Assembly (NCBI GenBank): GCA_913063835.1
Contig: CAJXZV010000001.1
Location: forward strand, 1,366-65,365
Source: an uncultured Eubacteriales bacterium
GTDB lineage: Bacteria; Bacillota; Sulfobacillia; UBA995; UBA9673
Reading direction: 5' to 3'
DNA: 64,000 nt
In this document: one piece after another, positions 5,381-59,457 of the stretch
Layout of the letters: each line of letters starts with the position of its first letter
How positions within the stretch are numbered: the stretch's first letter is position 1
The notes under the pieces: generated by a model
Databases searched by the model: none
Told to the model about the DNA's origin: nothing
The model's input: only the letters and a program-made list of their open reading frames with translations
Position numbers and translations under genes: made by a program

Positions 5381-5386
5381 GTCCGT

Positions 5387-5998: not shown

Positions 5999-6076
5999 TG
6001 GTGCGCCCGAGAGGACTTGAACCCCTGACCTACTGATCCGTAGTCAGTCGCTCTAATCCAGCTGAGCTACGGGCGC
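5999..6076 (-). tRNA. tRNA-Arg (anticodon ACG)
   Basis: Anticodon stem-loop ACTGA-CUACGGA-TCAGT, CCA encoded. Confidence 0.8.
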
Positions 6077-6091
6077 ACGCACATCTTGGTC

Positions 6092-6187
<96 letters not shown>

Positions 6188-6298
6188 TATTCGGTTGTCA
6201 ATCGATCGGGCAGGCCGACCGTGCCGGCGGCCCGGCTTCAGGCTATCTGGCTTATTAAGGATAGCACAGGGCGACTCTCAACTCAAGGTCGGAGCTCC

Positions 6299-6385
6299 TG
6301 GCGGAGGGGGCGGGATTCGAACCCGCAAGCCCGAAAGGGCGCCGGTTTTCAAGACCGGTCCGTTACCGTTACGGTACCCCTCCGC
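6299..6385 (-). tRNA. tRNA-Ser (anticodon UGA)
   Basis: Anticodon stem-loop CCGGT-CUUGAAA-ACCGG, CCA encoded. Confidence 0.75.
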
Positions 6386-32818: not shown

Positions 32819-32922
32819 CGTGGAAGGGTATGGGGGGAGGGCGAAGAATCCTTCTGAGCCCACGGCCGTCCGGGTCCCCGTGCGGCGGTCCGGAACCCCT
32901 CGCGGGAAGGAGTCTCACCTTC

Positions 32923-33894
32923 TTGTCTCTTTCCAGAGTGATACCTGAAGAGGGAGCCGAGGACGAGGTCACCGAGATTCCCATCGAGGCCGTCGTTCCC
33001 GGCCCCGGCCGCAAGTGGAGCTCCTTTGATGACAGGCGCTTGGCGGCCCTCGTCTCCGCGGCCAAGCGCACCGGGACGGTCGACCCTGTCGTGGTGCGGC
33101 CGGCGGGGAACGTCTTCGAGCTTGTCCTGGGGGAGCGGAGGCTGGCGGCGGCACGGCTGGCCGGCCTGCGGAGGGTGCCGGCGGTCGTCCGGGAGTTGTC
33201 ATCTCGGGACATGGCCCTCATGTCCCTGCTGGAGGAGCTCCAGACAGGGGAGTTCGACGTCATGGAGGAAGCCGAGGGCTACAGGAGGCTCAGCGAGGAG
33301 TTCGGCCTGACTCAGGCGGAGATAGGCCGGGCGGTGGGCAAGAGCCAGTCCACCATCGCCAACAAGCTGAGGCTTCTGCGGCTTCCCGAGTCGGTGCGGC
33401 GGAGAGTCTCGGCCGAGGGGGTCAGTGAGCGCCATGCCCGGGCCCTTCTTGACCTGCCGGATGAGAGGCTACAGCACAGGGTTCTGGACGAGGTGAAGGC
33501 CTGCTCGCTGTCAGTCAGGGAGACCGAAGAGAGGATTCGGGCCCTCCTGGGGACGGCGCCCGCCGACGGACCGAGACGGAGCGGCGGGAGAGCCGGCAGG
33601 ACGACCGGGGAGGAGCCGGCGCCGTCCGCCGGCGGGCGGCAGGTCGCCTGGCGGGGATTGGGCCAGGTCAGCGACAGGAGGGCGATTCGGGCCTTCCGGG
33701 ACATAAGACTTTTCTTGAACACCTTCAGGCGCGCGGTCGATATGCTCAAGGAGGCGGGTATCCCCGCCGAGATGACGGAGACGGAGGCCGGCGGCTGTCT
33801 GGAGATCAGGGTGCGCATCCCGACCGCGGGCGGCTCCGCGACCGCCTCCGCGCGGGCCGGCGGGGCGAAAGGTTCCCCCGGAGGGGGAGGGTGA
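32923..33894 (+). CDS. noc: ParB-family nucleoid occlusion protein (Noc-like); TTG start 10 nt after GGAAGGAG
   Basis: ParB-box motif VLGERRLAAARLAG and an HTH region. It lacks the N-terminal GLGRGL motif and sits upstream of soj, as noc does in B. subtilis. Confidence 0.7.
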   Translation: MSLSRVIPEEGAEDEVTEIPIEAVVPGPGRKWSSFDDRRLAALVSAAKRTGTVDPVVVRPAGNVFELVLGERRLAAARLAGLRRVPAVVRELSSRDMALMSLLEELQTGEFDVMEEAEGYRRLSEEFGLTQAEIGRAVGKSQSTIANKLRLLRLPESVRRRVSAEGVSERHARALLDLPDERLQHRVLDEVKACSLSVRETEERIRALLGTAPADGPRRSGGRAGRTTGEEPAPSAGGRQVAWRGLGQVSDRRAIRAFRDIRLFLNTFRRAVDMLKEAGIPAEMTETEAGGCLEIRVRIPTAGGSATASARAGGAKGSPGGGG

Positions 33895-33897: not shown

Positions 33898-34659
33898 GTG
33901 GGTAAGGTCATCGCCGTCGCCAACCAGAAGGGCGGCGTGGGGAAGACGACCACATCGATAAACCTGGGGGCCTGTCTGGCCCGGGCCGGCAGGCGGGTCC
34001 TTCTCATAGACCTGGACCCTCAGGGTCACGTGTCGAGTGGTCTGGGGATCGAGAAGAGCTCCATCAACGAGTGCATGTACGACGTGATCATCAACAACCT
34101 TCCCCTCGACCGCATCATCCGGAGGACGGCCTTCGAGAATCTCTGGGTCGCCCCCTCGACGATCGACCTCGCCGGGGCGGAACTCGAGCTCGTGCCTGCG
34201 ATTTCCCGGGAGACGCGGCTGAGGGACAGCCTTGAGGATTGCCGCGGACGCTACGACTTCGTGCTGGTCGACTGCCCGCCGTCCCTGGGTCTTCTGACGG
34301 TCAACGCTCTGACGGCGGCCGACTCCATCCTGGTCCCCATCCAGTGTGAGTACTACGCCTTGGAGGGGCTGAGTCAGCTGATGAACACCATCCACCTCGT
34401 CCGCACGCACCTCAACCCCAAGCTGCAGCTCGAGGGTGTGCTTCTGACCATGTACGACAGCCGGACGAACCTTTCGAGTCAGGTCGAGGACGAGGTCAAG
34501 AGGTACTTCCGCGAGAAGGTGTACCGGACGATCATTCCGAGGACGGTGCGCCTGAGCGAAGCTCCGAGCCACGGCCTGCCCATCATCTGCTACGACCCCG
34601 GGTCGAGGGGAGCGGAGGTCTACATGGAGTTGGCGAGGGAGGTCATGGGCAGTGCGTAA
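33898..34659 (+). CDS. soj: Chromosome partitioning ATPase ParA/Soj
   Basis: Deviant Walker A KGGVGKTT and 253 aa length. Confidence 0.9.
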   Translation: MGKVIAVANQKGGVGKTTTSINLGACLARAGRRVLLIDLDPQGHVSSGLGIEKSSINECMYDVIINNLPLDRIIRRTAFENLWVAPSTIDLAGAELELVPAISRETRLRDSLEDCRGRYDFVLVDCPPSLGLLTVNALTAADSILVPIQCEYYALEGLSQLMNTIHLVRTHLNPKLQLEGVLLTMYDSRTNLSSQVEDEVKRYFREKVYRTIIPRTVRLSEAPSHGLPIICYDPGSRGAEVYMELAREVMGSA

Positions 34660-35506
34660 GCGCGGACTCGGCCGCGGTCTCGACGCCCTCCTGCCTCCCG
34701 CGGAGGACGGCGCTCGGGAGGGGGACATCAGGGAGATACCGGTCAACGACATCGTCCCGAACCGCCTTCAGCCGCGCCACAGGTTCGACCCCGACAGGCT
34801 GGCCGAGCTGGCCGCCTCCATCAAACAGCACGGAGTGGTCCAGCCGGTCATCGTCCGAAAGGTGGACGGCGGGTACGAGCTGGTGGTCGGGGAGCGCAGG
34901 TGGCGCGCGGCGCGCCAGGCGGGCCTCGCCACCATACCCGCGGTGGTCAAGGACGTCGCATCCGACGGGGAGGTCATGGCCGTCGCCCTGGTCGAGAACC
35001 TGCAGAGGCAGGACCTGAACCCGCTGGAGGAGGCCTCCGCCTACCAGTACCTTGTCCAGGAGCTGGGCCTGACCCAGGAGGAGGTCGCCGAGAGGGTGGG
35101 GCGCAGCCGGTCGCAGGTGGCCAACACCCTCAGGCTTCTCAACCTGGACCCGGAAATCCAGGAGGAGATCCAGGCCGGCGGCTTCAGCATGGGCCACGCC
35201 AAGGTGGTGCTCTCCCTTCCCGACCGCCAGAAGCAGTTGCGCCTATTCCGGCTGGTGATGAAGAAGGGCCTTTCCGTGCGCCAGGCGGAGGAGGAGGCCA
35301 GAAAGCTCCTCGCCGGGGAGCGTCCGCGGAGACAGAAGGAGCCCGGCCCGTCGCCCTTCGCGGATATCGAGGCCCGGATGAGGGACGCCCTGGGCACGAG
35401 GGTCGTGGTGAAGGGCAAGGCCACGCGCGGCCGGGTGGAGATCGAGTACTACTCGGCGGAGGATCTCCAGCGCATCGTGGACCTCATCTCGGGGAGCCAT
35501 CCCTGA
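34652..35506 (+). CDS. spo0J: Chromosome partitioning protein ParB/Spo0J
   Basis: RGLGRGLDALL and the ParB box GERRWRAA. Confidence 0.9.
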   Translation: MRKRGLGRGLDALLPPAEDGAREGDIREIPVNDIVPNRLQPRHRFDPDRLAELAASIKQHGVVQPVIVRKVDGGYELVVGERRWRAARQAGLATIPAVVKDVASDGEVMAVALVENLQRQDLNPLEEASAYQYLVQELGLTQEEVAERVGRSRSQVANTLRLLNLDPEIQEEIQAGGFSMGHAKVVLSLPDRQKQLRLFRLVMKKGLSVRQAEEEARKLLAGERPRRQKEPGPSPFADIEARMRDALGTRVVVKGKATRGRVEIEYYSAEDLQRIVDLISGSHP

Positions 35507-35796
35507 GGGTGTCAGGGGGGCCGGCGGGACGGGGACGCCCAGGGACCTGGGCGGGGTTTCGCCAGTGTTCCACGTGGAACATGCCCTTGCCGACACCGTC
35601 CGACAATAAGGAACCGCAGGTGTATGGAGCTGGAAAAAAGGCCCTCCCGACCCTCCCGCACAAGAGTCCGGGGAAGGAATCTGCCTCCAGGGACGAGAAT
35701 ACCTAGGCGGTTTCCCCTGTTCAGGTGGGGTCCTGTTTTCTCTCTTCGGGGAGCGGTGGCGGCTTGGCTCGCAGGGACCGGAACGTCTTCACCATC

Positions 35797-36741
35797 ATGA
35801 TCGTCCCTCACGCAGAGACGAAGGTCTTCACCTTCCGCCTCAGCACCCTTGCCTTTCAGGCCATCTGCTACGGGTTCGTCTGCCTCTTCCTCTTCATGAT
35901 GATCCTCGCCCGGTCGTACCAGACCATGGCCGCGAACATGTGGGAGCTCGAGGAACTCCGCCTGGTCAACCGCGAACAGCGCGAGCAGATAGAACAGCTC
36001 GTCAAGGAGGCCAGAGCCCTCCAAGAGCGGATGATGATCCTCGACGAGCTCGACAAGCAGGTCCGGGAGATGATGAAGCTCGAGTCCTATGACGCGGGCG
36101 ACCGCTCCGTGGCCCTGTCCTCCTTCCCGGGAGGGGGCTCCGACACCGGGCTGGCGGTGACCGCCTCTATGGGCGGAATCGGCGGGGGGCGCCTTCCCCA
36201 GGCCGGGGGTGTGGGGGTCGTCAGCCGGAAGGCCATCCAGGACGCCCTCCGCGCCCGCAGCATCCTTGAGAGCATCGACAGGGAGATGACCGTCAGGAGC
36301 CAGAGCCTGCACGAATTGCGGCGCCTCATCGCGGAGAACATGTCCTACGTGGCGGCCCGGCCTTCGATCTGGCCCGCCTACGGCTTTATCACCTCCTACT
36401 ACGGCTACAGGTTCACCGTCTACGGCTACGAGCACCATGACGGCATAGACATCTCCGGGCGCGTCGGCACCCCCATCGTGGCCACGGCCGACGGCACCGT
36501 GGTCTTCGCCGGGTGGAACGGGCTCTACGGCCGGACGGTGGTCATCGACCACGGGTACGGTTGGAGCACGCTGTACGGGCACTGTGCGAAGCTGGCCGTG
36601 GAGTTGGGTGATAGGGTCAAGCGCGGTGAGGTCATCGGGTTCATCGGGTCGACCGGGAAGAGCACCGGCCCTCATGTGCACTATGAGGTCCGCGTCAACG
36701 GACGCACGGTCAACCCCCGGTATTACCTCGGCGGGAACTGA
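35797..36741 (+). CDS. Membrane-anchored M23 (LytM-type) metallopeptidase with a coiled-coil region
   Basis: N-terminal TM helix and coiled coil. The HxxxD motif (HDGIDI) and HxH motif (HVHYE) are intact. Confidence 0.7.
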   Translation: MIVPHAETKVFTFRLSTLAFQAICYGFVCLFLFMMILARSYQTMAANMWELEELRLVNREQREQIEQLVKEARALQERMMILDELDKQVREMMKLESYDAGDRSVALSSFPGGGSDTGLAVTASMGGIGGGRLPQAGGVGVVSRKAIQDALRARSILESIDREMTVRSQSLHELRRLIAENMSYVAARPSIWPAYGFITSYYGYRFTVYGYEHHDGIDISGRVGTPIVATADGTVVFAGWNGLYGRTVVIDHGYGWSTLYGHCAKLAVELGDRVKRGEVIGFIGSTGKSTGPHVHYEVRVNGRTVNPRYYLGGN

Positions 36742-36855
36742 CCCGGACCCGCCGGCAGCCGCCAGCCGGCGCCCTCTCCGCCTGGGGGCTGCGCTTCCTT
36801 CGTTCCCGTGTCCACCGTCGCCCCGCGCGGCATCTCCTCCGCCTGCAGGCCTGAG

Positions 36856-37383
36856 ATGTCCGAACACGGCTTCACCGGGGTCGGCGCATCGGCGGCGGCC
36901 CCTGACACAACCACTTCCGAAGGAGGCATCGAGGTGTTCAAGAAGGACGGACCGGCAGCGCCGGAGCAGGACAAGGTCAGCACGCTCATCGGTCGGGGGA
37001 CCGAGATAAAGGGGACCATGAAAGCCACCGGAGGCATCCGCATCGACGGACGTGTCGACGGGGAGATAGACCATGACGGCGACCTCGTCGTCGGCGAGGA
37101 AGGCGTCGTGGAGGCCAACGTCAAGACCCGGAACGTGACCATCGCCGGCGAGCTCCGCGGCAATGTCGAGGCTTCCGGTCGGGTGGAGATCGTCGCCACC
37201 GGGAAGATGCTCGGGGACATAATCGTGAGCGCGCTCGTCGTCCACGAAGGCGCCGTCTTCGACGGGAGCTGCCAGATGAGGCGGGCCGAAGGAGGCGAGG
37301 CCAGGGGGCGGACCGCGAGGGACCGCGCCAAGGCCGCGGCGGGCGCATCCCCTGCCGGGGCGGACGCAGAGAAAGCGCGGTAG
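36856..37383 (+). CDS. Bactofilin (DUF583 polymer-forming cytoskeletal protein)
   Basis: Beta-helical repeats LIGRGTEIKGTMKATGGIRIDGRVDGEI...VVGEEGVVEANV...IAGELRGNVEASGRVEI. Confidence 0.65.
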   Translation: MSEHGFTGVGASAAAPDTTTSEGGIEVFKKDGPAAPEQDKVSTLIGRGTEIKGTMKATGGIRIDGRVDGEIDHDGDLVVGEEGVVEANVKTRNVTIAGELRGNVEASGRVEIVATGKMLGDIIVSALVVHEGAVFDGSCQMRRAEGGEARGRTARDRAKAAAGASPAGADAEKAR

Positions 37384-37392
37384 CTTGCGGCG

Positions 37393-38298
37393 ATGAGAGT
37401 GTTGTTCATCGTCAACCCGGTAGCCGGTGGGGGCAGGGGCCTGCGGGTCTGGCGTGCCGTCGAGCGAGCGCTCCTTGAGCGCGGGTGTCCCGCGGAGCAC
37501 CGCTTCACCGGGGGCAGAGGGGCCGCGACCGAACTGGCGGCCGAGGTGCGGCGGGCCGGCTACGACCGGGTCGTCGGAATCGGGGGCGACGGGACCATCC
37601 AGGAGATCGTCAACGGTCTCCTCGACGAGGAAGCCCGCTGCCCCACCGCCCTGGCCGTCATACCGGGCGGGACCGGGAACGACTTCTCCAAGATGCTCGG
37701 CTATCCGCAGAACCCCTTGAAGGCCCTCGAAGTCGCCCTCGGGGGACGCGAACTGACCCTTGACGTCGGCCGGATCGGCCGCCGCTACTTCATCAACATC
37801 GCCGGAGTGGGGTTCGACGCGGAGGTCGCCGCCTTCCTGAACCTGAGGCCGAAGCGTCTCCCCGGAGTCCTGACCTACCTCTTCGGGGTCCTGGTCATGC
37901 TCTTCCGCTACCGACCTGCTCCCCTCGAGCTCGCCATGGACGACCTGACCCTGAAGGAGAAGTGCCTCCTGGTCTCGGTGTGCAACGGACACTCCCACGC
38001 GGGAGGCATGAAGATGTGCCCCGGGGCCAGGCCGGACGACGGCGTGCTCGACATCTGCGTCGCCGGGAACCTGAGCCGGCTGGAAACCCTCATGCTTCTG
38101 CCCCGTGTCTTCTGGGGCGGGCATACCCGCCACCGGAAGGTAAGACTATACAGGACGACGGAGATAAGGATAGCGTCCCGGACTCCGCTCCACGTCCAGG
38201 CCGACGGCGAGGTCCTCGGCCGGCTCCCGGCCGAGATACGCATCGTCCCGGGAGCGTTGCGGGTCATCGGGCCACCGGCGGCCGGAGCCGTGACCTGA
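37393..38298 (+). CDS. Diacylglycerol-kinase-family lipid kinase (YegS/DagK-like)
   Basis: Motifs NPVAGGGRG, GGDGT and GTGNDF. Confidence 0.75.
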   Translation: MRVLFIVNPVAGGGRGLRVWRAVERALLERGCPAEHRFTGGRGAATELAAEVRRAGYDRVVGIGGDGTIQEIVNGLLDEEARCPTALAVIPGGTGNDFSKMLGYPQNPLKALEVALGGRELTLDVGRIGRRYFINIAGVGFDAEVAAFLNLRPKRLPGVLTYLFGVLVMLFRYRPAPLELAMDDLTLKEKCLLVSVCNGHSHAGGMKMCPGARPDDGVLDICVAGNLSRLETLMLLPRVFWGGHTRHRKVRLYRTTEIRIASRTPLHVQADGEVLGRLPAEIRIVPGALRVIGPPAAGAVT

Positions 38299-38330
38299 AG
38301 GGCGCCAGTGAACGTCTCGGGACGTGAGAA

Positions 38331-38996
38331 ATGGTTGGGGGCGTGGGTCAGTTGATCTTCACCGACAGGCGCGATGCGGGCCGACGCCTGGCCGAGGTGC
38401 TGGCCTCCCGCGACCTGGCCGACCCCGTGGTCCTGGGGGTCCCCAGGGGCGGCGTCGTCGTGGCCTACGAGGTGGCCCGGGTCCTCGCCGCCCCCCTCGA
38501 CGTGGTCATCCCGCGCAAGATAAGCGCTCCGACCAACCCTGAACTCGCGGTGGGTGCCGTCGCCCAGGACGGGACGCTTGTCCTCGACGAGGCCATGGTC
38601 AGGACGGTGGGCGTCAGTGAGGCCTACCTGAGGAGAGAGGCCGAGCGCCAGAAAAAGGAGATCGAGCGTCGGCTGAAGCTCTACCGCGGGACGCGGCCCG
38701 CCGTGGACCTGACCGGGGCGACGGTCATCGTCGTCGACGACGGTATCGCCACCGGGGCGACGGTCTTGGCCGCCCTTCGGGGGCTCCGCTCCCAGGAGCC
38801 CGGCCGCGTCGTCCTGGCCGTTCCCGTGGCCCCGCCCGACACCCTGGAGAGGCTGGCCTCTGAGGCGGACGAGGTCGTATGCCTTGCGACGCCGGAGCCG
38901 TTCTACGCGGTGGGCCAGTTCTACCGGCACTTCGAGCAGACCTCCGACGAGGAGGTCGTGGAGCTCATCAAAAGGAGCCGCAGGGAACCGGAATAG
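38331..38996 (+). CDS. Putative phosphoribosyltransferase
   Basis: PRPP-binding loop VIVVDDGIATGAT. Confidence 0.7.
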   Translation: MVGGVGQLIFTDRRDAGRRLAEVLASRDLADPVVLGVPRGGVVVAYEVARVLAAPLDVVIPRKISAPTNPELAVGAVAQDGTLVLDEAMVRTVGVSEAYLRREAERQKKEIERRLKLYRGTRPAVDLTGATVIVVDDGIATGATVLAALRGLRSQEPGRVVLAVPVAPPDTLERLASEADEVVCLATPEPFYAVGQFYRHFEQTSDEEVVELIKRSRREPE

Positions 38997-39094
38997 GGGC
39001 CACCGGAGGACCAATACTAACCCCCGGGTCGCGCCGGCCCGGGGGTTCGCCTTCCTTGGGCGGCGAAGGGCCGGCTGAGGACGGGTAGGGAGGA

Positions 39095-39367
39095 ATGAGC
39101 GTGCGCAAGGCCAGGACCAGGGTCGTGGCCGTCGAGGACGGCCTCAGACCCGTCGCCGAAGCCCTCCGCGAGCGGGGGTACGAGGTGATGACCTTCACGG
39201 AAGGCAACCTCGACCAGGCCGAGGCCTTGGTGGTCAGCGGGCAGGACGACAACCTCCTCGGTGTCCACACGAGGCAGGTTCGTGGACCGGTCATCAGCGC
39301 CGAGGGGAAGACACCGGTGGAGATCGTGCGGAGAGTGGAGAAGGAGCTCGGCGGTCCGGAGGTCTAG
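39095..39367 (+). CDS. UPF0180 protein (YkuS-like)
   Basis: GYEV...GQDDNLLGV...VISAEGKT resembles B. subtilis YkuS. Its stop overlaps the yyaC stop in a CTAG palindrome. Confidence 0.6.
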   Translation: MSVRKARTRVVAVEDGLRPVAEALRERGYEVMTFTEGNLDQAEALVVSGQDDNLLGVHTRQVRGPVISAEGKTPVEIVRRVEKELGGPEV

Positions 39368-40059
39368 CGCACCGCCGGCCTGGGGCCGGCCTGCTCGGGG
39401 AGGCGTCTGGCGGGCATCTGGGCCAGGACGGCCGCGAGGCCTTCAGAGATCACGGTGGACATCTTCATCACCAGGTGAAGACGGGTGTTCTGGAGCACGA
39501 AGTACTCCATGAAGCCCCCGACGTTGACCACGCCGGTGACGTAGAGGTCGCCGACCGGCGGGAGGCTCTTGTTCACGCCGGCCCCGGGGCGGAGGGGGCC
39601 GAGCCCCACGCAGATGGTCCCCACGTTCTCGAGAGTCCCGAGACACGCGTCGACGGCCACCACCACGTGCCCGGCGTATCTCCTGTGGATGGTCTCGAGG
39701 CGCTCGGACAGGTTCCCGGCGTGGACCGGGTCCTCCAGCGTGCCGAAGACCACCTCCCGGTCAGGGACCATGGAGCGGAGCCGGTGGCCGGTCAGGGGGC
39801 CGAGGGCGTCCCCCGTGGACCTGTCCGTTCCCACGCAGACGACGACTATCCCGCGCAGGACCGCCGTCACGCGGGTCAGGGCCTCCCGCACCGCCGTGCA
39901 GAGTCTCGCGTCCGCGGCCGGCTCGTCGACATGGATCCGGACGGACCAGTTCGACCACCGCGGAACCGAGAGGCAGCCCGCCGCTCTGGCCGCGACCTCT
40001 GACGCGGGCCGACCTCTCCCGACACCGGCACGTGGGACGTTGCGCGTGAGTCGCTCCAC
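39364..40059 (-). CDS. yyaC: Sporulation protein YyaC (GPR/HybD-like protease fold); GTG start inferred
   Basis: VVVCVGTDRSTGDALGPLTG motif. The remainder of the 445-aa track ORF is Arg/Pro-rich junk. Confidence 0.6.
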   Translation of the reverse strand: MERLTRNVPRAGVGRGRPASEVAARAAGCLSVPRWSNWSVRIHVDEPAADARLCTAVREALTRVTAVLRGIVVVCVGTDRSTGDALGPLTGHRLRSMVPDREVVFGTLEDPVHAGNLSERLETIHRRYAGHVVVAVDACLGTLENVGTICVGLGPLRPGAGVNKSLPPVGDLYVTGVVNVGGFMEYFVLQNTRLHLVMKMSTVISEGLAAVLAQMPARRLPEQAGPRPAVR

Positions 40060-40253: not shown

Positions 40254-41426
40254 GTGGTGAAGACGAAGACGGCGAGGCCGATACGTATCGGGGCGCACCG
40301 GCGACAGCGCCCGTCCCCGCGTTCCGGCCGCGGGGCCGTCTGGACGGGTCTCTTCCTCCTGCTTCTTGTCGTCGCCGCGGCCGTCTCCCGGGACCTGTGG
40401 GCCGACCTCGCTGGCGGCCTGCTGGGCCTGGGCCGCCAGGCGCTGCCCCAAGGAAGGGTCCTGTGGACGGCGGAGGTCGCCGCGGGGGCTCTGTTCTGCC
40501 TGGACTCGTCCGGCACGGCCTATCTCGCCTACGAACCGCCGGGAGGCGCCCCTCCGGCTCCCCGGACGCGGGTCGTCGCCGTCTCGGCGTCCGGTTCCGA
40601 AGAGAGCCTCGCCGACGTGTCCGGGAGTCCTCTCGCCCTGGGCCTCGAGGAAGTCGAGGAAGTCCCTGCCGGGGAGACGGACGGAGAGTCTCCTCCCACA
40701 CGCTCCCTGCGGGTCGTCCTGGTCGGGACCGGCGGCGGAGACCTCGTCTCGGAGGAACTCCTGTGGCTCGAGCCCCTGGGCTCCGGAGACGGGGCCGAGG
40801 TCGCCCACCGCACCGAGCGGGCCGTCGTCACCTCCGCGGCCGCCCATGCCGACGGTCCGAGCGTGGTGGCCGGGCTCTACGTCCCTGACCCTGCCGGGGA
40901 GGGCGTCCCCGAAGGCCGCGTCATCGCCCTCGGGCCGGCGGGGCAGGAGCTGTGGGCGGCGAAGATGGACCGGCGACCTGTCCACCGTGTCGCCGCCCGG
41001 CCCGGCACGGGCTTCATCGCCGCGGCCACCCCCGAACGCGTGACCCTGTTCGACAGCCAGGGCCACCTCCTGTGGTCCAAGAGGTTCCGCTCAGGGGTCA
41101 CCGACCTTGCTCTCCAGAGCCACGGGGGGCCCGCCGTCGTCAGCGCCGGGCGGCTCCTGAGCCTCGACCGCCGGGGGAACCTCGTCTGGCGGAAGGAAGC
41201 GGAAACGGGCATCACGGCCCTCTCCTGTGCGGCGGACCGCATCGCCGTCGCGGCAGGGGACGGGGTGGTGGTCTACGACGAGAACGGCCTGGCCCGCTGG
41301 TGGGTGCCGTGCGACGGCTCCCCCGTCGAGGTCTCGCTGAGTCCGTGCGGCCGCCTGGTGGCCGTGGTCGTCGACTCCGGGACCCTCCTCGTGGCGGAGG
41401 CGCCCGGAAGGGAGGGCGGCAGGTGA
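40254..41426 (+). CDS. Membrane-anchored PQQ-like beta-propeller repeat protein
   Basis: N-terminal TM helix. Repeated G.(L/V)(L/V)W blades: QGHLLWSKRF, RGNLVWRKEA, NGLARWWVP and GQELWAAKM. Confidence 0.55.
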   Translation: MVKTKTARPIRIGAHRRQRPSPRSGRGAVWTGLFLLLLVVAAAVSRDLWADLAGGLLGLGRQALPQGRVLWTAEVAAGALFCLDSSGTAYLAYEPPGGAPPAPRTRVVAVSASGSEESLADVSGSPLALGLEEVEEVPAGETDGESPPTRSLRVVLVGTGGGDLVSEELLWLEPLGSGDGAEVAHRTERAVVTSAAAHADGPSVVAGLYVPDPAGEGVPEGRVIALGPAGQELWAAKMDRRPVHRVAARPGTGFIAAATPERVTLFDSQGHLLWSKRFRSGVTDLALQSHGGPAVVSAGRLLSLDRRGNLVWRKEAETGITALSCAADRIAVAAGDGVVVYDENGLARWWVPCDGSPVEVSLSPCGRLVAVVVDSGTLLVAEAPGREGGR

Positions 41427-45893: not shown

Positions 45894-47927
45894 ATGAAGT
45901 CCATCCTGGACCGACTGGTCCGGACCGGCACAACGCTGACCAGCAAGTTGGGTGACGCCGAGCAGCTCAAGCGCCGGGTCGACGCCCTGTACGATATCCT
46001 GGCGCACATCCACGGTCCCGAGAAGCTGGTCCTGAGAGCGGGAAAGCTCGACGTCCTCGACGAGATGCATTCCGACGACCTCGCCAGGCGCGTCCTCGCC
46101 CTGAGGCGGCTCGTCTTCGAGGACCCGACCGTCGGCATCCCGCCCAGGCCGGCGGAGATCCCGCTCGTCCTCGAAGAGGTGGAGGATGAGATCGCGGACC
46201 TCGTCGCCAGGCGCTCCGTCGAGGACAAGCTCGAGAAGAAGATCGCCGAACGGATGCAGAAGAGGCACGAGGAGTACGTCAGAGACATCAAGCTCCAGAT
46301 CATCAATGAGGACGTGGGTCCCGAGAACCCGCAGACGCTGAAGAAGCTCCGCTCCCTCGAGAAGCTTGAGAGGCGGAGACTGGCCCGCACGGTCATCGAG
46401 GTGCTGAAGCCCACCAGCCTCTCGGAGATCGTCGGACAGGACGGGGCGGTGAAAGCGCTCCTGGCCAAGATCGCCTGCCCCTTCCCCCAGCACGTCATCC
46501 TCTACGGACCGCCGGGCGTCGGCAAGACGACCGTGGCCAGGCTGGTCCTCGAGGAGGCGCGCCGTCTGCCCTACTCGCCGTTCGGGGCCAAGGCCCCCTT
46601 CGTGGAAGTGGACGGCACGACCCTCCGCTGGGACCCGCGGGAGGCCACGAACCCGCTCCTCGGGTCTGTCCACGACCCTATATACCAGGGGGCGAGGCGC
46701 GAGCTCGCCGAGACCGGCGTGCCAGAACCCAAGCTGGGCCTTGTGACCGAGGCCCATGGCGGCATCCTCTTCATCGACGAGATCGGCGAGCTCGACCCGA
46801 TGCTCATGAGCAAGCTCCTCAAGGTCCTGGAAGACAAGAGGGTGTTCTTCGATTCGTCGTATTACGACCCTGCCGACCCTAATGTGCCGCGCTACGTGAG
46901 GAAGCTCTTCGAGGAGGGCGCACCGGCCGATTTCGTGCTCATCGGGGCGACGACACGCGACCCCTGGTCCATACATCCGGCTCTCCGTTCGCGGTGCGCC
47001 GAGGTCTTCTTCGAGCCCCTGTCCCCAGACGACATCCAGGAGATCGTCCTGGGCGCCTGCCGCAAGCTCAACGTCAGCCTGAGCCGCGAGCTGGCCGAGC
47101 TCATCAGCCACTACACCGTCGAGGGCCGGAAGGCCGTGGGCCTCCTCGCCGACGCCTACGGGCTCGCCTTGTACCGCCGCGGCGGGTCCGGCCTCGTCCA
47201 CGAGTTCGACAGCCGCCGCAAGAGGAAGACCCCGCCGGCCGTCACCATCGAGAGACAGGACATCCTCGACGTCATCCAGACCAGCCGGCTCACCCCGAAC
47301 ACCTCCGTCAAGGCCTCCTCGACCCCGGAGGTCGGGCGGGTCCTCGGCCTGGCCGCCTGCGGCTACCTCGGGACCGTGCTCGAGATAGAGGCCGTCGCCT
47401 TCCCGGCGCGCAAGGAGGGCGAGGGGACGGTCCGCTTCAACGAGACGGCGGGGAGCATGGCCAGGGACTCGGTCCACAACGCGGCGTCGGTGGTGCGGCA
47501 GATGACCGGTGAGGACCTCTCGAGCTACGACGTTCACGTGAACGTCGTGGGAGGCGGTGACATCGACGGGCCGTCGGCCGGCGCGGCCGTCCTCGTGGCC
47601 ATCATCAGCGCCATCAACGGCCACCCGGTCAGGCAGGACACGGCGGTGACGGGCGAGGTCTCCGTGAGAGGGCGGGTGAAGCCTGTGGGAGGCCTCTACC
47701 AGAAGGTCTACGGGGCGCGCCAGGCCGGGGTGACCCGGGTCGTCATCCCGGAGGAGAACAAGGACGACCTCCCGGCCTCCGTCCCGGGTGTCACGGTGGT
47801 CCCCGTGTCGACCATCGAAGAGGTCCTGGACGCGGTCCTTTCGACCGACGGGGGAGCCGACGAGGAAGCCGGGCCGCCGACGGACGGGTCAGCCGCCGCG
47901 GCCGCCGCCGGGAAGGGTCCCTCGTGA
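45894..47927 (+). CDS. Lon-family ATP-dependent protease lacking the LonA N-domain (sporulation LonC/LonB type)
   Basis: Walker A GPPGVGKTT and the S16 catalytic Ser motif DGPSAG. Its position between rplI and dnaB is typical of spore-former LonC. Confidence 0.75.
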   Translation: MKSILDRLVRTGTTLTSKLGDAEQLKRRVDALYDILAHIHGPEKLVLRAGKLDVLDEMHSDDLARRVLALRRLVFEDPTVGIPPRPAEIPLVLEEVEDEIADLVARRSVEDKLEKKIAERMQKRHEEYVRDIKLQIINEDVGPENPQTLKKLRSLEKLERRRLARTVIEVLKPTSLSEIVGQDGAVKALLAKIACPFPQHVILYGPPGVGKTTVARLVLEEARRLPYSPFGAKAPFVEVDGTTLRWDPREATNPLLGSVHDPIYQGARRELAETGVPEPKLGLVTEAHGGILFIDEIGELDPMLMSKLLKVLEDKRVFFDSSYYDPADPNVPRYVRKLFEEGAPADFVLIGATTRDPWSIHPALRSRCAEVFFEPLSPDDIQEIVLGACRKLNVSLSRELAELISHYTVEGRKAVGLLADAYGLALYRRGGSGLVHEFDSRRKRKTPPAVTIERQDILDVIQTSRLTPNTSVKASSTPEVGRVLGLAACGYLGTVLEIEAVAFPARKEGEGTVRFNETAGSMARDSVHNAASVVRQMTGEDLSSYDVHVNVVGGGDIDGPSAGAAVLVAIISAINGHPVRQDTAVTGEVSVRGRVKPVGGLYQKVYGARQAGVTRVVIPEENKDDLPASVPGVTVVPVSTIEEVLDAVLSTDGGADEEAGPPTDGSAAAAAAGKGPS

Positions 47928-49381
47928 GTGTCCCCGCCGACCGTCTGCCCCCGCAGAACATAGAAGCCGAACAGTCGGTCCTGGGGTCGATTCTCATCGA
48001 CCGGGACGCCATCCCGACGGCCATGGACGTGCTCCGTCCGGAAGACTTCTACCAGGACGTCCATCGCATCATCTTCAAGGCCGTCCTGCGTCTTTACGAC
48101 GACAACCGGCCTGTGGACGTCGTGACCCTGACCGAAGAGCTCAGGCGGTCGGGGGAGCTCGAGCGCGTCGGCGGGCTGACCTATCTGAGCACGTTGGCCC
48201 GGACGGTGCCCACGGCGGCCAACATCCGGCACTACGCGAACATCGTCGCCTCCAAGGCCATGCTGAGAGACCTCATCTCCGCCGGGACCAGGATCGTCAC
48301 CGACGCCTACGAGTCGGCCGAGGAGCCCCGTGAGATCCTGGACAGGGCGGAGCAGATGATCTTCGACATCGCCCAGCACCAGATAAGAAAGCCCTACACG
48401 GCCCTCAAGGACCTTCTGGTGAAAGCCTACGAGCGGCTCGACCGCCTCTACGGGACCCGCTCCCCGGTCACGGGAATCCCGACCGGCTACCCCGACCTCG
48501 ACGCCATCACCGCGGGTCTGCAGCCGTCGGACCTGGTCATCCTCGCCGGAAGGCCCTCACAGGGGAAGACGACCCTGGCCGTGAACATCGCCCGGAACGC
48601 CGCCGTGCTCTACGAGCTGCCGGTCGGGTTCTTCAGCCTGGAGATGTCTGCCGACCAGCTGGCCCTCCGCTTCCTCGCGTCGGAAGGGTCGCTCGACGCC
48701 CACCGCCTGAGGTCCGGCATCCTGGCCGAGGCGGACTTCGGCAAGATATCCGACGCCATGGGGCGCCTCGGTGAGGCTCCCATCTTCATCGACGACTCTT
48801 CCAGCCTCTCCGTGCTCGAGCTGCGGGCCAGAGCCAGACGGATGAAGAGGGACCATGACATCCAGCTCCTCGTCATCGACTACCTCCAGCTCATGCGTGG
48901 CAACCCTAGGAGTGAGAACAGACAGCAGGAGATATCGGAGATCTCCCGCGCCCTGAAGGCGCTCGCGCGGGAGCTCGATGTGCCCGTTCTGGCCCTCTCC
49001 CAGCTCAGCCGGGAGGTCGAGAAGCGTCCTTCACGGAGACCCCTGCTGTCCGACCTCCGGGAATCAGGGGCCATCGAGCAGGACGCCGACGTCGTGGTCT
49101 TCATCCATTTCCCACAGGAGAAGGAGGTCTGTGTCGACCTCAACGGGCGGGAGGTGCGGGTGGTCGTCGAGGCCGACGACAGGGGCCTCGGACGGAAGAC
49201 CAAGCTAGAGGCGCGCCGGAACGGCAGGTCGCTGGGGACCTACACCCTTGACAGGGACGTGATGTTCGCCGAACTCATCATCGCCAAACAGCGCAACGGC
49301 CCGACCGGGTCGGTGTTCCTCACCTTCCTCCGGCGGTTCGGCCGGTTCGCCTCCATCGCCCTGGAGAGGGAGGCTTCCTGA
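47924..49381 (+). CDS. dnaB: Replicative DNA helicase DnaB (DnaC in B. subtilis nomenclature)
   Basis: PPQNIEAEQSVLGSIL, Walker A GRPSQGKTT, SQLSR, and IIAKQRNGPTG. Confidence 0.9.
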   Translation: MSVPADRLPPQNIEAEQSVLGSILIDRDAIPTAMDVLRPEDFYQDVHRIIFKAVLRLYDDNRPVDVVTLTEELRRSGELERVGGLTYLSTLARTVPTAANIRHYANIVASKAMLRDLISAGTRIVTDAYESAEEPREILDRAEQMIFDIAQHQIRKPYTALKDLLVKAYERLDRLYGTRSPVTGIPTGYPDLDAITAGLQPSDLVILAGRPSQGKTTLAVNIARNAAVLYELPVGFFSLEMSADQLALRFLASEGSLDAHRLRSGILAEADFGKISDAMGRLGEAPIFIDDSSSLSVLELRARARRMKRDHDIQLLVIDYLQLMRGNPRSENRQQEISEISRALKALARELDVPVLALSQLSREVEKRPSRRPLLSDLRESGAIEQDADVVVFIHFPQEKEVCVDLNGREVRVVVEADDRGLGRKTKLEARRNGRSLGTYTLDRDVMFAELIIAKQRNGPTGSVFLTFLRRFGRFASIALEREAS

Positions 49382-56657: not shown

Positions 56658-56732
56658 GCGGGAGTAGTTCAGTGGTAGAGCATCGGCTTCCCAAGCCGAG
56701 TGTCGCGGGTTCGAATCCCGTCTCCCGCTCCA
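56658..56732 (+). tRNA. tRNA-Gly (anticodon CCC)
   Basis: Anticodon stem-loop TCGGC-UUCCCAA-GCCGA, GGTTCGAATCC T-arm, CCA encoded. Confidence 0.85.
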
Positions 56733-56761
56733 TTTTTGTTCTTCAAGTTCATTACAAGAAA

Positions 56762-56836
56762 GCCGGCGTAGCTCAGTGGTAGAGCCCTCGATTCGTAATC
56801 GAGCGGTCACGGGTTCGAATCCCGTCGCCGGCTCCA
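56762..56836 (+). tRNA. tRNA-Thr (anticodon CGU)
   Basis: Anticodon stem-loop CTCGA-UUCGUAA-TCGAG, CCA encoded. Confidence 0.85.
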
Positions 56837-56849: not shown

Positions 56850-57908
56850 TCAGTTCAGGATGAAGAGGGGGTTCACCGAGACTCCGTTGACCCGGACCTC
56901 GAAGTGGAGGTGCGGTCCGGTGGAGTACCCGGTGCTCCCGACCTTCGCTATGACCTGACCGGTCTCGACCCACTGCCCGTACCGGACCAGAAGCCTTGAC
57001 GCGTGGGCGTAGAGGGTCGTCACCCCGTCACCGTGGTCGAGGATGACCGTGTAGCCGTAGCCGCCCTTCCATCCGGCGAAGACGACCCGGCCCGCGCGGG
57101 CGGCGCGGATGTAGCTTCCGTAGGGGGCCCCGATGTCGATCCCGTGGTGGAACCTGCCCCACCGAGGACCGTAGTAGGAAGTCACCGGACCGAGCACCGG
57201 CCAGCGGTACTCCCCGTAGATGGCCACCGCCCGCCCGCCGACGATCACCGTGCGGACGATGGTCGGGGTGGCCCCCGGGATGATGACCTCGGTGCCGGGC
57301 TCGAGGGCCTCCGGGTCGTCCAGGGCGTTGGCCTGGACGATGACGTCCGGTTCGACCCCGTACTTCTCCGCGAGGGCCGAGACGGTGTCTCCCGGCTGGA
57401 CGGTGTGGAGCACTCCGTCGACCGACAGGAGCCTTATCTCCTGACCCACCTGGAGGCGGCTCGGCACCAGGTCGGGGTTCGCCCCCATGATGGTGGTGAC
57501 GGTGATGCCGTGCTCCTGAGCGATGTCCCAGAGGGTGTCCCCGCTCCTCACCGTGTAGGTGAAGACGCGCGGGCGCGGCTCGGCGTCGGCCCCGGCGGAG
57601 AGTCGGACGGGGGATGTCCGGGAGCCGGTGGACGTCCGGGGTTCCTCCGCGGTGAGCGGGCCCGGGGCCCCGGACCGTTGCACCGGGTCTCCGAGACGCC
57701 CGTGCCTGCCGGGGAGGGCGGTCGGAGAGGTGAGTTCCACCCCGGGTCTCCCCGGGAGGAGTCCTTCCAACGGCTCGCCGCCGCCCACGGGGGTGAAGAA
57801 GGCCTGGGTCTCGGCGTCGGTCGTGATGAGGAGCGGCACGCCGGTCCCGGTGAGGGCTACAGAGGCCAGGACGAGGACGAGGACGACGATCGGCACGAGG
57901 CGGCCCAA
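56850..57908 (-). CDS. LysM-domain M23 peptidase (two LysM repeats plus a LytM catalytic domain)
   Basis: YTVRSGDTLWDIAQEHG and HTVQPGDTVSALAEKYG LysM repeats. HHGIDI and HLHFE M23 motifs. Confidence 0.75.
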   Translation of the reverse strand: MGRLVPIVVLVLVLASVALTGTGVPLLITTDAETQAFFTPVGGGEPLEGLLPGRPGVELTSPTALPGRHGRLGDPVQRSGAPGPLTAEEPRTSTGSRTSPVRLSAGADAEPRPRVFTYTVRSGDTLWDIAQEHGITVTTIMGANPDLVPSRLQVGQEIRLLSVDGVLHTVQPGDTVSALAEKYGVEPDVIVQANALDDPEALEPGTEVIIPGATPTIVRTVIVGGRAVAIYGEYRWPVLGPVTSYYGPRWGRFHHGIDIGAPYGSYIRAARAGRVVFAGWKGGYGYTVILDHGDGVTTLYAHASRLLVRYGQWVETGQVIAKVGSTGYSTGPHLHFEVRVNGVSVNPLFILN

Positions 57909-58077: not shown

Positions 58078-59457
58078 ATGCCGCGCACGTCCACAGGTCC
58101 GGCGCCCGCCACGCGGGCGCTGGTCATCGCTTTCGTCGTCCTCTTCGGGTCCGTCATGGCCGCCTTGGGTTGGGAGGCGTACGACAGGCAGTTCGTCTAC
58201 GCCGTGGAGGTGGACGGGACCTTCCTCGGATACGCCGCCTCGAGGGAGGAGTGGAACCAGGCGGTCCAGGAGGCCCTGACCCGGGCCGAGGAGGAGACCG
58301 GTCTCGCCGTCGTCCTCCAGTCCGAGGTGTCCCTCACGAGGACCCGTCCGCGGCCCGACCACGAGGTGCTCACGGGGACCGCTCTCCTCGAGGCCTGCCG
58401 AGGAGCGCTCACTTTCGTCTCCGAGGCCTGGGCCGTGACTGTCGACGGCGCCGAGGTGGTCTACCTCCGGAGCGAAGCCGAGGCCCGGCGGGTCATCGAA
58501 GAGCTGGTCCGAGACCACCGGGATTCGCTCCTGGCCAAAGGGAACACCGTCGTCGAGAGGATCACCGTCCTCGAGGAGGTCTCCTGCCGCCGCACGACGG
58601 CCGCTGTCGACAAGGTCGTGGATGTCGGACGCGCCAAGGACATCCTCCGCCGCGGTACCGACCGCCTGGAAGTCCACGTCGTGGCGCGCGGGGAGAGTCT
58701 CTGGACTATAGCCAGTGACAACTCCCTGACCGTGGCCGACCTGCAGAAGGCCAATCCCCACATCACCGACCCCGACCGCATCAGGGTGGGGGACAAGATA
58801 AACCTCATCGTTCCCGACCCTTACGTCAACCTTGAGAGCGTTGAGCTCCACACCTTCATCAGGTACGTGCCCTTCTCCGTCCAGCGCCGCACCGACCCCG
58901 AGCTCTGGCCGTGGGAGAGCCATGTCCAGCGCGCCGGTGTCTACGGCCGCGAAGAGGTCACGGTGAGGATACGGCGCCTGAACGGCGAGGAGGTCTCCCG
59001 CTCCGTCGTCTCCGAAAAGCGGCTCTCCGACCCCGTGCCACAGGTCTTCGTCCTCGGGACCAAGCAGTGGCCGAAGAGGAACGGCGGCTGGGTCTTCCCG
59101 GTCGTCGGCCCCATAACCTCGTGGTACGGCTGGCGCTACAGCGGGTTCCATCACGGGCTGGACATCGGGGCCCCCTACGGCACTCCGGTCCTGGCCACCG
59201 CGAGCGGCACCGTCACCTTCGTCGGCTGGCGCGGAGGCTACGGCCGCACGGTCATCATCGACCACGGGGGAGGGGTAGAGTCGCTCTACGCGCACCTCTC
59301 GACCCTGGGGGTGTCGGTCGGACAAAGGGTGAGCCAGGGCCAGGTGATAGGACGGGTGGGGAGCACCGGTCGCAGTACAGGGGCCCACCTTCACCTGGAG
59401 ATACGCGTGAACGGCAAATCCGTGAACCCCGTCGACTACTACCCCCGCGGCGGCTGA
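58078..59457 (+). CDS. Membrane-anchored LysM-domain M23 peptidase
   Basis: N-terminal TM helix. LysM repeat HVVARGESLWTIASDN. HHGLDI and HLHLE M23 motifs. Confidence 0.75.
   Translation: MPRTSTGPAPATRALVIAFVVLFGSVMAALGWEAYDRQFVYAVEVDGTFLGYAASREEWNQAVQEALTRAEEETGLAVVLQSEVSLTRTRPRPDHEVLTGTALLEACRGALTFVSEAWAVTVDGAEVVYLRSEAEARRVIEELVRDHRDSLLAKGNTVVERITVLEEVSCRRTTAAVDKVVDVGRAKDILRRGTDRLEVHVVARGESLWTIASDNSLTVADLQKANPHITDPDRIRVGDKINLIVPDPYVNLESVELHTFIRYVPFSVQRRTDPELWPWESHVQRAGVYGREEVTVRIRRLNGEEVSRSVVSEKRLSDPVPQVFVLGTKQWPKRNGGWVFPVVGPITSWYGWRYSGFHHGLDIGAPYGTPVLATASGTVTFVGWRGGYGRTVIIDHGGGVESLYAHLSTLGVSVGQRVSQGQVIGRVGSTGRSTGAHLHLEIRVNGKSVNPVDYYPRGG

Follow-up and report, generated by a model that had tools for sequence, protein, structure and literature searches.

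A bactofilin gene paired with the gene for a membrane-anchored M23 peptidase beside parB in a spore-forming Firmicute: a candidate LmdC-BacA type module

The 64-kb stretch of DNA analysed here (hereafter, the window) contains, next to the chromosome-partitioning gene parB, a gene for a membrane-anchored M23 metallopeptidase followed on the same strand by a gene for a bactofilin, and by analogy with characterized systems this locus is probably a morphogenetic module of the LmdC-BacA type, in a Firmicute form. The two genes are conserved as a unit. The pair is not new, the association having already been catalogued across bacteria as the LmdC-BacA type: a published table covering 226 species (Pöhl et al. 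2024, PMC10945521) lists it for Symbiobacterium thermophilum and for a large number of further Firmicutes, about 45 if the names given there are assigned to the Firmicutes as we have done. The advance is incremental, in that a catalogued association is extended and no new kind of system is added; what is gained is that both gene models are corrected and that a conserved motif of the cytoplasmic tail, FTxMxVPH, is defined, which could be mutated in tests of docking. The features of the locus are given in Table 1.

Table 1. Features of the M23-bactofilin locus and its surroundings (positions in the window)
Feature	Position	Strand	Basis
parB/spo0J, upstream neighbour	34652..35506	+	Pfam ParB_N, HTH_ParB, ParB_C; TIGR00180, 192 bits
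parS site TGTTCCACGTGGAACA, perfect palindrome, in the parB-M23 intergenic region	35566..35581	.	Sequence match
M23 metallopeptidase gene (325 aa, predicted bitopic, LmdC-like)	35764..36741	+	PF01551, family alignment, AlphaFold2, Foldseek
Cytoplasmic N-terminal tail, aa 1-27, predicted beta-hairpin, motif FTIMIVPH	35764..35844	+	DSSP on the model, alignment
Predicted transmembrane helix, aa 29-49	35848..35910	+	Hydropathy; helical in the AlphaFold2 model
Predicted extracytoplasmic helical region: helix to aa 109, linker 110-153, helix 155-198	35911..36357	+	Model
M23/LytM catalytic domain, aa 208-322	36385..36729	+	H225, D229, H273, H304 and H306 present
Ribosome-binding site GAAGGAGG, 7 nt 5' of the bactofilin GTG	36919..36926	+	Direct sequence reading
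Bactofilin gene (149 aa, corrected GTG start)	36934..37383	+	PF04519, PDB matches, model
YegS/DAGK-type lipid kinase	37393..38298	+	PF00781, PF19279; TIGR00147, 201 bits
Phosphoribosyltransferase (38331-38996) and UPF0180/YkuS (39095-39367)	38331..39367	+	Profiles; conserved downstream context
Spore protease YyaC, convergent, closing the conserved block	39364..40059	-	TIGR02841, 207 bits (cutoff 85)

The initial annotation placed the start of the peptidase gene at ATG 35797. We place it at TTG 35764, because the conserved N-terminal motif RDRNVFTIMIVPH begins 5' of that ATG, the peptidase of a 98%-identical relative is annotated with 325 aa, and the ribosome-binding site and the TTG are both preserved in a relative of 65% identity. 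A Pfam profile search matched PF01551 to aa 224-318 of the product (E=7e-37; 126 bits, cutoff 28.7). Active M23 peptidases have zinc ligands supplied by an HxxxD motif and by the second histidine of an HxH motif, together with two catalytic histidines; here the set is complete, with H225/D229 as HxxxD, H273 as the catalytic histidine and H304/H306 as HxH, and all five residues are invariant or nearly so in an alignment of 28 homologues. Judged from these intact motifs, the protein is predicted to be an active M23 peptidase. Foldseek searches with its structural model recovered StM23, NMB0315, LytM and lysostaphin (E from 1e-14 to 1e-10), as well as Csd1 and the LytM domain of EnvC.

The peptidase has a single hydrophobic segment (Kyte-Doolittle 19-residue maximum 2.26, at aa 29-31), and the tail that precedes it is net positive, with five K+R residues against two D+E, which argues for an N-in topology; the predicted arrangement is that of a single-pass protein with the M23 domain outside the membrane and a basic hairpin tail in the cytoplasm. 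The hairpin strands are predicted at aa 8-13 and 22-27 (AlphaFold2 and DSSP; pLDDT 51-71 there), and among the 28 homologues the tail shows a conserved motif, FTxMxVPH...F.LS, in which P15 is invariant and T10 nearly invariant. Beyond the tail, the AlphaFold2 model (mean pLDDT 76.8) consists of two long helices, aa 28-109 and 155-198, separated by a Gly-rich, disordered linker, with heptad-register hydrophobic occupancies of 0.69 and 0.83. The membrane-anchored LytM peptidase with intact motifs and a coiled coil that had been proposed in the initial annotation is thereby upheld.

That the second gene codes for a genuine bactofilin is shown by the full polymerisation domain of its product, by the beta-helix fold, by the conserved phenylalanine of the interface and by the N-terminus, MFKKD. 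The product, recognized as a bactofilin from the outset, matches PF04519 (formerly DUF583) over profile positions 1-98 of 98 (E=1.8e-28; 99.1 bits, cutoff 27.9). The first reading let the gene begin at the start of the open reading frame, 36808; this was rejected in favour of GTG 36934 because of conservation, the position of the ribosome-binding site, and an indel that breaks the frame 5' of the GTG in the 98%-identical relative, and the intergenic gap is therefore 192 nt, not 66 nt. Bactofilins of the relatives, 125-157 aa long as annotated, open with MF[GKRS]K, and in a sequence comparison the MFKKD start fits the published membrane-targeting consensus MFSKKKK, which also occurs in Bacillota (PMC12448750), and is a putative membrane-targeting sequence. 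In the AlphaFold2 model a core at aa 15-115 is all-beta (pLDDT >90) and is flanked by disordered tails, the C-terminal one (aa 116-149) being basic. By Foldseek the model superimposes on 6rib_A, a subunit of the 6RIB filament, with a TM score of 0.94 and an rmsd of 1.0 Å, and the PDB matches include 6RIA (4.5e-13) and 2N3D (3e-9). F109 aligns to F105 of the Thermus and F130 of the Caulobacter bactofilin, on the assumption that the chain numbering of 2N3D is native; mutation of either residue blocks polymerisation, and of 19 homologues at least 90% share F109.

The same-strand M23-bactofilin pair was found in all seven distinct relatives (35-98% identity), among them a Thermoanaerobacteraceae contig that keeps the pair with no parB nearby, and the two genes are also adjacent at locus L090. 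Paenibacillus polymyxa, Desulfitobacterium hafniense and Acetivibrio thermocellus are further carriers of the pair. A scan of contigs carrying 80 distant loci (up to 36% identity) among the matches listed recovered the adjacency at 13 of them, in Saganbacteria, Caldiserica, Acidobacteriota, Thermodesulfovibrionales and Spirochaetales. Chance falls far short of explaining an adjacency that every close relative shares and that is met again in several phyla. The FTxMxVPH motif tracks it: in these 80 listed matches the motif is present at 11 of the 13 bactofilin-adjacent loci vs 18 of the 67 non-adjacent ones (Fisher p = 1.5e-4); these 18, M23 proteins that carry the motif with no bactofilin inside about 6 kb, count against the module reading. 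Looking up neighbours from the bactofilin side, we found that the distant homologue L091 has neither an M23 gene nor parB beside it. Because the bactofilin matches its model in full and the adjacency is kept in the relatives, a filament-guided peptidoglycan hydrolase is the best-supported reading of the pair. The earlier proposal that such remodelling operates in division or sporulation is carried by the adjacency and the bactofilin model as far as filament guidance is concerned, but nothing found here is specific to division or to sporulation.

The pair could also be a passenger in a stable, origin-proximal block that is inherited jointly while its two proteins act independently, and to this we give a low probability. 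Close relatives keep the entire stretch between rnpA and cvpA, these genes included, and therefore some of the adjacency does reflect shared descent; moreover, the spacer between the two genes differs in length and sequence between relatives. However, the adjacency recurs across several phyla and in differing genomic contexts, with spacers of only 3-25 nt at the shortest, and published experiments have established a physical and functional link between M23 peptidase and bactofilin in two species. A reading of the 192-nt spacer as a regulatory RNA was rejected: it has no match in Rfam, its fold z-score is only -1.9, and it shows no conservation past the closest relative. A scan of positions 35300-39500 for sigma-70 promoters gave no promoter-like site, and a terminator scan of the same interval gave one terminator-like site, at 35715-35730 just 5' of the M23 start, a yield no higher than that of shuffled sequences. 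Judged on these scans, co-transcription of the peptidase and bactofilin genes across the spacer is unproven.

As the initial annotation had it, the pair lies beside spo0J. In endospore-forming Firmicutes it is found directly 3' of parB, and in the window and in close relatives a parS site lies between. The window's parS, TGTTCCACGTGGAACA, is the sole match in the 64 kb, where shuffled sequences predict none; it is retained in the 98%-identical relative, and the 65%-identical one has two copies in the same parB-M23 spacer. This setting raises the question of whether the bactofilin serves as scaffold or anchor for ParB-parS, in the manner of BacNOP-PadC in Myxococcus, with the M23 gene as a bystander. 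The pair begins 257 nt past parB, with a perfect parS in between and about 6 kb from dnaA/oriC, parB lies no more than 6 kb upstream in nine of 15 distinct Firmicute pair loci, a bactofilin gene at locus L092, from another lineage, lies 13 nt past parB with no M23 gene, and BacNOP do organize ParABS in M. xanthus. The same species has the gene order parA-parB-bacM, another bactofilin gene directly 3' of parAB near the origin, but the neighbour listed there encodes a lipoprotein of unknown function rather than an identified M23 peptidase, and BacM is N-terminally processed. BacM, co-transcribed with parAB and the sole parAB-linked bactofilin to have been tested, acts on cell shape, and its loss leaves ParB undisturbed. 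A functional place in the ParABS/origin system is unlikely for the bactofilin of the window, for several further reasons: the pair outlasts the loss of a nearby parB (L007, L004, Paenibacillus L067 and L078), a bactofilin next to parB without M23 was not seen among the Firmicute relatives sampled, and the cytoplasmic motif of the peptidase follows the bactofilin. Nor is there a PadC-like ParB-family adaptor beside the bactofilin, the ParB-family genes present being spo0J and a noc-like paralogue 5' of soj.

The host's standing as a spore-former, claimed in the initial annotation, is supported by YyaC and by LonC (964 bits, cutoff 679), and the peptidase might accordingly be pictured as a SpoIIQ- or SpoIVFA-like LytM protein of the asymmetric septum, of engulfment or of the cortex, its origin-proximal gene being expressed early in the forespore. 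Besides the two spore markers, this idea has on its side that yyaC is a conserved neighbour, found in the loci of seven distinct relatives, that the pair of the Thermoanaerobacteraceae relative is near yqfC/yqfD-type sporulation genes, with rpsU in between, and that the M23 domain is distantly similar to SpoIIQ. The score with the equivalog model NF053738 (61 bits, cutoff 250) argues against identity with SpoIIQ itself, and the architecture, with its hairpin, coiled coil and active site, is unlike that of SpoIIQ. Furthermore, Anaerovibrio, Selenomonas, Thermus, spirochaetes and Caldiserica, none of which is known to form endospores, have this pair with this architecture, and no sporulation promoter was recognized at the locus, the promoter scan having been one for sigma-70 sites. 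A dedicated sporulation function is improbable on this evidence.

The LmdC-BacA interpretation rests on a comparison of parts. LmdC is a bitopic DD-endopeptidase that combines an M23 domain with a coiled coil and whose cytoplasmic beta-hairpin binds BacA directly (PMC10945521), the KD of LmdC-BacA being about 15 uM, and in Hyphomonas neptunium as well as in Rhodospirillum rubrum, where the two were studied, bactofilin polymers recruit the DD-endopeptidase (Pöhl et al. 2024, eLife, PMC10945521). The locus in the window has the same order, M23 then bactofilin on one strand; its peptidase is predicted to have a short cytoplasmic tail with a hairpin, a transmembrane helix and a helical/coiled-coil region, the zinc site of its C-terminal M23 domain is complete, and its bactofilin has short disordered tails on either side of the core and begins with MF..K... 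The differences are also clear. The non-catalytic region lies outside the alphaproteobacterial LmdC family, Pfam DUF5930: with the padded 38-aa published tail of H. neptunium LmdC as query we found two fragments, relatives that carry PF19353 (DUF5930), whereas the window peptidase and two Negativicute homologues gave no match to this model even at E<=10, and hhalign of the window peptidase against a DUF5930-type LmdC fragment returned a probability of 0.1%. In our hand alignment of the hairpins the BacA-binding residues R-H-L and R-S of LmdC are replaced by F-T-I and V-P. The peptidase, at 325 aa, is shorter than the approximately 380-460 aa inferred for LmdC from published gene coordinates, and the host is a spore-forming Firmicute in which the pair adjoins parB/parS at the origin.

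LmdC-BacA is a better precedent than the Csd1-CcmA pair of Helicobacter invoked in the initial annotation. What stands of that comparison is the pairing itself, an M23 gene adjoining a bactofilin gene as in Csd1-Csd2-CcmA of Helicobacter pylori and Pgp3-CcmA of Campylobacter, and the match of the M23 domain to Csd1 (PDB 5J1L, E=3e-26, and by Foldseek). However, the cluster has no catalytically dead, Csd2-like M23 paralogue, its M23 gene being the only one there, and although Pgp3 is the best NCBIfam match of the peptidase, the score of 99 bits against a cutoff of 300 (NF052530) speaks against membership of the Csd1/Pgp3 family. The CcmA of Helicobacter has interactions with a membrane-spanning complex of which Csd1 is one member, and its effect on Csd1 is possibly indirect, via stability. 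Conserved M23-bactofilin gene pairs are also known as BB0246-BbbB in Borrelia burgdorferi and M23-LbbD in Leptospira, where the bactofilin organizes sites of peptidoglycan insertion and the role of the M23 partner is only inferred; these bactofilins differ from ours in being spirochaete-specific, with other N-terminal motifs.

EnvC, SpoIIQ and DipM have the LytM fold in common with the peptidase, as EnvC does the long helices before the domain, but they have degenerate active sites, SpoIIQ of Bacillus and DipM among them, and other partners, whereas the site here is intact. DipM, MepM and ShyA were rejected as identities of the peptidase on scores far under the NCBIfam cutoffs. It is very improbable that the protein is an EnvC-like activator of septal amidases and no enzyme, with an incidental or regulatory link to bactofilin: some database sources do name homologues 'septal ring factor EnvC', and full-length EnvC structures align to the model over about 370 columns through the common arrangement of two long helices and a LytM domain, but the peptidase keeps all five residues of the zinc site and of catalysis, each invariant or nearly so, where regulatory LytM factors have lost metal-binding ones (PMC10945521), the peptidase has a membrane anchor of its own, ftsEX genes are absent nearby, and the EnvC model NF008644 gives 81 bits against a cutoff of 270.

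If the locus is an LmdC-BacA type module, the bactofilin would polymerise on the inner face of the membrane, and the polymers would bind the hairpin tail of the peptidase and so concentrate the enzyme at particular places. There it would cut peptide cross-links of the peptidoglycan, as a DD-endopeptidase by analogy with LmdC, and this cutting would loosen the wall locally and bias the site at which new wall is inserted. Bactofilin-M23 modules are among the few known means of siting wall hydrolysis in bacteria, and all functional work on them has so far concerned species that are Gram-negative or spirochaetes and whose cells are curved, helical or stalked; here what is probably the same module, complete in its predicted working parts, is present beside the origin in a high-GC, spore-forming lineage of Firmicutes. 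Its placement may be no accident, the bactofilin either binding both the peptidase tail and the ParB-parS complex or being regulated by ParB spreading, but we regard such coupling as a speculative and quite improbable extension. Were it true, local wall hydrolysis would be tied to the position of the origin, with the pole or the asymmetric septum during sporulation as examples of where, and the Firmicute tail family, whose sequence is not related to DUF5930, would be a bactofilin-docking peptide of independent evolutionary origin.

Downstream of the pair, the lipid kinase, phosphoribosyltransferase and ykuS genes named in the initial annotation were all located by profiles (37393-39367). The lipid kinase gene begins 9 nt past the bactofilin stop and is probably co-transcribed with the bactofilin gene. 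It also follows the bactofilin at loci L001, L002, L004, L008 and L009, but not in Sporomusa, in Thermoanaerobacteraceae or at L090, and this linkage is restricted to the present lineage. The other two M23 genes of the window are at 56.8-59.5 kb and encode proteins with LysM and G5 domains.

The two genes that directly follow spo0J/parB, ~6 kb from the replication origin, encode an M23 peptidase and a bactofilin, and the pair belongs to a known, already catalogued class. The initial annotation of the pair is real and correctly read except for the gene boundaries, as both starts had to be moved. Its peptidase start (ATG at 35797) was rejected, because the N-terminal stretch RDRNVFTIMIVPHAETKVFTFRLS, strongly conserved in an alignment of 28 full-length homologues (36–98% identity), starts 5' of that codon. 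This conserved N-terminus, the annotation of 325 aa in the closest relative (98% identity), and the GGAG box and TTG codon retained in a 65%-identical relative establish the gene listed in the table. The long ORF from 36808 was also rejected as the bactofilin gene: the GTG at 36934 has a strong GAAGGAGG box 7 nt ahead of it, and the longer frame is broken in the closest relative by a 1-nt indel 5' of this GTG. Bactofilins of relatives are annotated as 125–157 aa with N-termini of the form MF[KRGS]K, and the N-terminus MFKKD found here agrees with the membrane-targeting consensus MFSKKKK of bactofilins, Bacillota included (PMC12448750).

Features of the window around the M23–bactofilin pair and elsewhere
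Feature	Position	Strand	Details
Eight tRNA genes	4425–6383		cluster
Signal recognition particle RNA	4823–5086	-	inside the tRNA cluster
dnaA	27887–29407	-	dnaN, recF, gyrB and gyrA also on minus strand
rpmH, rnpA, yidD, yidC/spoIIIJ, jag, rsmG, noc-like ParB, soj, spo0J/parB		+	in this order
Noc-like ParB-family gene	32830–33894	+	second ParB-family gene, 5' of soj; TIGR04285 232 bits, below cutoff 315; long Gly/Ala/Arg-rich C-terminal extension
spo0J/parB	34652–35506	+	directly precedes the pair
parS	35566–35581		perfect palindrome TGTTCCACGTGGAACA, between parB and peptidase gene
M23 peptidase	35764–36741	+	TTG start, 325 aa
Bactofilin	36934–37383	+	GTG start, 149 aa, begins MFKKDGP
YegS/DAGK-type lipid kinase	37393–38298		begins 9 nt past bactofilin stop; then phosphoribosyltransferase, UPF0180/YkuS, yyaC (convergent)
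PQQ_2/BamB-like beta-propeller protein, small ORF, CvpA-family membrane protein	40254–41426		after yyaC
LonC-type sporulation protease	45894–47927		TIGR02903; just 5' of dnaB/dnaC
Replicative helicase dnaB/dnaC	47924–49381
Two further tRNA genes	56658–56833
M23 peptidase, two LysM domains + M23	56850–57908	-	352 aa, divergent from the next gene
M23 peptidase, LysM + G5 + M23	58078–59457	+	459 aa, ~20 kb 3' of the pair

The M23 assignment and the intact motifs noticed initially are confirmed by a Pfam Peptidase_M23 match (E=7e-37) and by H225, D229, H273, H304 and H306, the residues that bind zinc or serve as catalytic histidines, each of which varies little or not at all across the family. Among solved structures, Csd1 and active M23 enzymes come closest. 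Given this active site, the alternative that the protein is an EnvC-like regulator is highly improbable. The proposed membrane anchor corresponds to a single hydropathy-predicted transmembrane segment (aa 29–49); the tail ahead of it has a net positive charge, which implies an N-in topology and a predicted cytoplasmic tail. In an AlphaFold2 model (mean pLDDT 76.8), this tail is predicted to form a beta-hairpin (strands 8–13 and 22–27), followed by a long helix (28–109), a disordered Gly-rich linker, a second helix (155–198) and the M23 domain (aa 208–322). A whole-library search with the 200 non-catalytic residues (35764–36363, aa 1–200) recovered 137 cluster representatives at E≤1e-3, most of them proteins of ~300–350 aa in which the match is N-terminal. 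The hairpin, transmembrane and helix region thus forms a recognisable family of its own; no Pfam model spans it, whereas its alphaproteobacterial counterpart is DUF5930. Neither of the two additional M23 genes in the window has a bactofilin neighbour.

The bactofilin ORF matches the Pfam Bactofilin (former DUF583) model, the check that had been suggested for it, over the entire profile length (E=1.8e-28). Its predicted structure, an all-beta core (aa 15–115) with disordered tails, fits the Thermus filament subunit closely (TM 0.94, rmsd 1.0 Å), and F109 is the aligned counterpart of Thermus F105 and Caulobacter F130, mutation of which abolishes polymerisation.

Conservation of the gene pair was also borne out: in all seven distinct homologue loci (35–98% identity), Sporomusa included, the M23 gene is followed by a bactofilin gene on the same strand, and the pair was recovered again from the bactofilin side. 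In a Thermoanaerobacteraceae contig it lies between a HIT gene and rpsU/yqfC/yqfD, away from parB. Species-representative genomes from many phyla yielded at least 80 distant loci (≤36% identity). Among the matches listed, a bactofilin gene lies 3–265 nt 3' of the M23 gene in 13 of 80, including Negativicutes, Clostridiales, Paenibacillus, Saganbacteria, Caldiserica, Acidobacteriota, Thermodesulfovibrionales and Spirochaetales. A motif at the peptidase N-terminus, [FY]T[IVL]x[IVL][IV]P, was found in 11 of these 13, compared with 18 of the 67 non-adjacent loci listed (Fisher p=1.5e-4). Since the motif is far commoner beside bactofilins, the predicted cytoplasmic tail, beyond the catalytic domain alone, travels with the bactofilin; mere synteny of two genes would hardly account for the pair.

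In LmdC, the bitopic peptidase of the LmdC–BacA module, a transmembrane helix separates the short cytoplasmic tail from a coiled coil and an active M23 domain, and the protein acts as a DD-endopeptidase; binding of its tail peptide to BacA has a KD of ~15 µM, and in R. rubrum recruitment requires a conserved cytoplasmic beta-hairpin (PMC10945521). The accompanying survey by Pöhl et al. (2024) lists adjacent bactofilin and M23 genes in 226 species, including Symbiobacterium thermophilum, Paenibacillus, Desulfitobacterium, Desulfosporosinus, Pelosinus, Thermoanaerobacter, Heliobacterium, Syntrophomonas, Natranaerobius, Halothermothrix and many more Firmicutes (PMC10945521), and thus the association was already catalogued in the lineage studied here. 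No experimental study of the pair in any Firmicute was found in the literature searched. Fragments related to the H. neptunium LmdC tail peptide carry Pfam DUF5930, whereas DUF5930 went undetected at E≤10 in the window peptidase and two Negativicute homologues, and comparing the peptidase with a DUF5930 fragment by profile gave a probability of 0.1%. When the hairpins were aligned by hand (ERQIYHRSGGTVRYISIS vs VFTIMIVPHAETKVFTFRLS), the V.x[YF]x[IL]S strand was retained together with the alternating pattern, but where LmdC has its binding clusters (R-H/Q-L/I and R-S), the window peptidase seems to have F-T-I and V-P. Thus, the resemblance lies in architecture and context, and the tail may be either a diverged LmdC-tail homologue or an independent docking peptide. 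The analogy with Helicobacter drawn initially is less close. The complex with which CcmA interacts in that genus spans the membrane and includes Csd1. A Pgp3/Csd1-type model scores the window peptidase at 99 bits (cutoff 300), and no Csd2-like paralogue adjoins the pair.

We consider it rather probable that membrane-bound bactofilin polymers bind the peptidase tail; such binding would concentrate the active endopeptidase at specific sites, where it would shape local wall turnover. To this class the present analysis adds corrected gene models, a defined tail motif statistically linked to bactofilin adjacency, the absence of DUF5930 homology, and the parS/origin context.

The parS palindrome is the sole copy in the window, and the 65%-identical relative has two copies in its parB–M23 spacer. 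Among 15 distinct Firmicute pair loci, nine have parB ≤6 kb 5' of the pair. Several published coordinates are near the record start, as in Thermacetogenium phaeum (35 kb) and Selenomonas sputigena (26 kb); the S. thermophilum pair is at 3.55 Mb (PMC10945521). The latter position is presumably near the end of a ~3.57-Mb genome. Location of the pair close to the origin is genuine and recurs. In a diderm-type organism (contig k141_770897, 5001–5390), a bactofilin 33% identical to the present one lies 13 nt past parA-parB (order yidC-jag-gidB-parA-parB-bactofilin) and has no M23 gene beside it, so the parB–bactofilin linkage recurs independently of the peptidase. The same holds for M. xanthus bacM, co-transcribed with parAB; BacM has a role in cell shape, and its loss leaves ParB positioning unaffected. 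A bactofilin serving as a ParABS scaffold is very unlikely here. The peptidase–bactofilin link is tighter and more portable than that to the origin.

All neighbours claimed initially (spo0J, lipid kinase, phosphoribosyltransferase and ykuS) are present. The description of the host as a spore-former is reasonable, because YyaC (207 bits, cutoff 85) and LonC (964 bits, cutoff 679) both exceed the cutoffs of curated spore-lineage marker models. The present evidence assigns the module to neither division nor sporulation, and there is little likelihood that it is a sporulation-specific device. The lipid kinase gene follows the bactofilin in closer relatives (L001, L002, L004, L008 and L009) but not in Sporomusa, Thermoanaerobacteraceae or L090, the locus from the bactofilin-side look-up. 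Directly 5' of the pair, Firmicute relatives L004, L005, L006, L008 and L090 have a DUF4446 gene; the window lacks this gene and has parB and parS in its place. The trio of PQQ_2/BamB-like, small ORF and CvpA genes is retained in relatives to ~40% identity.
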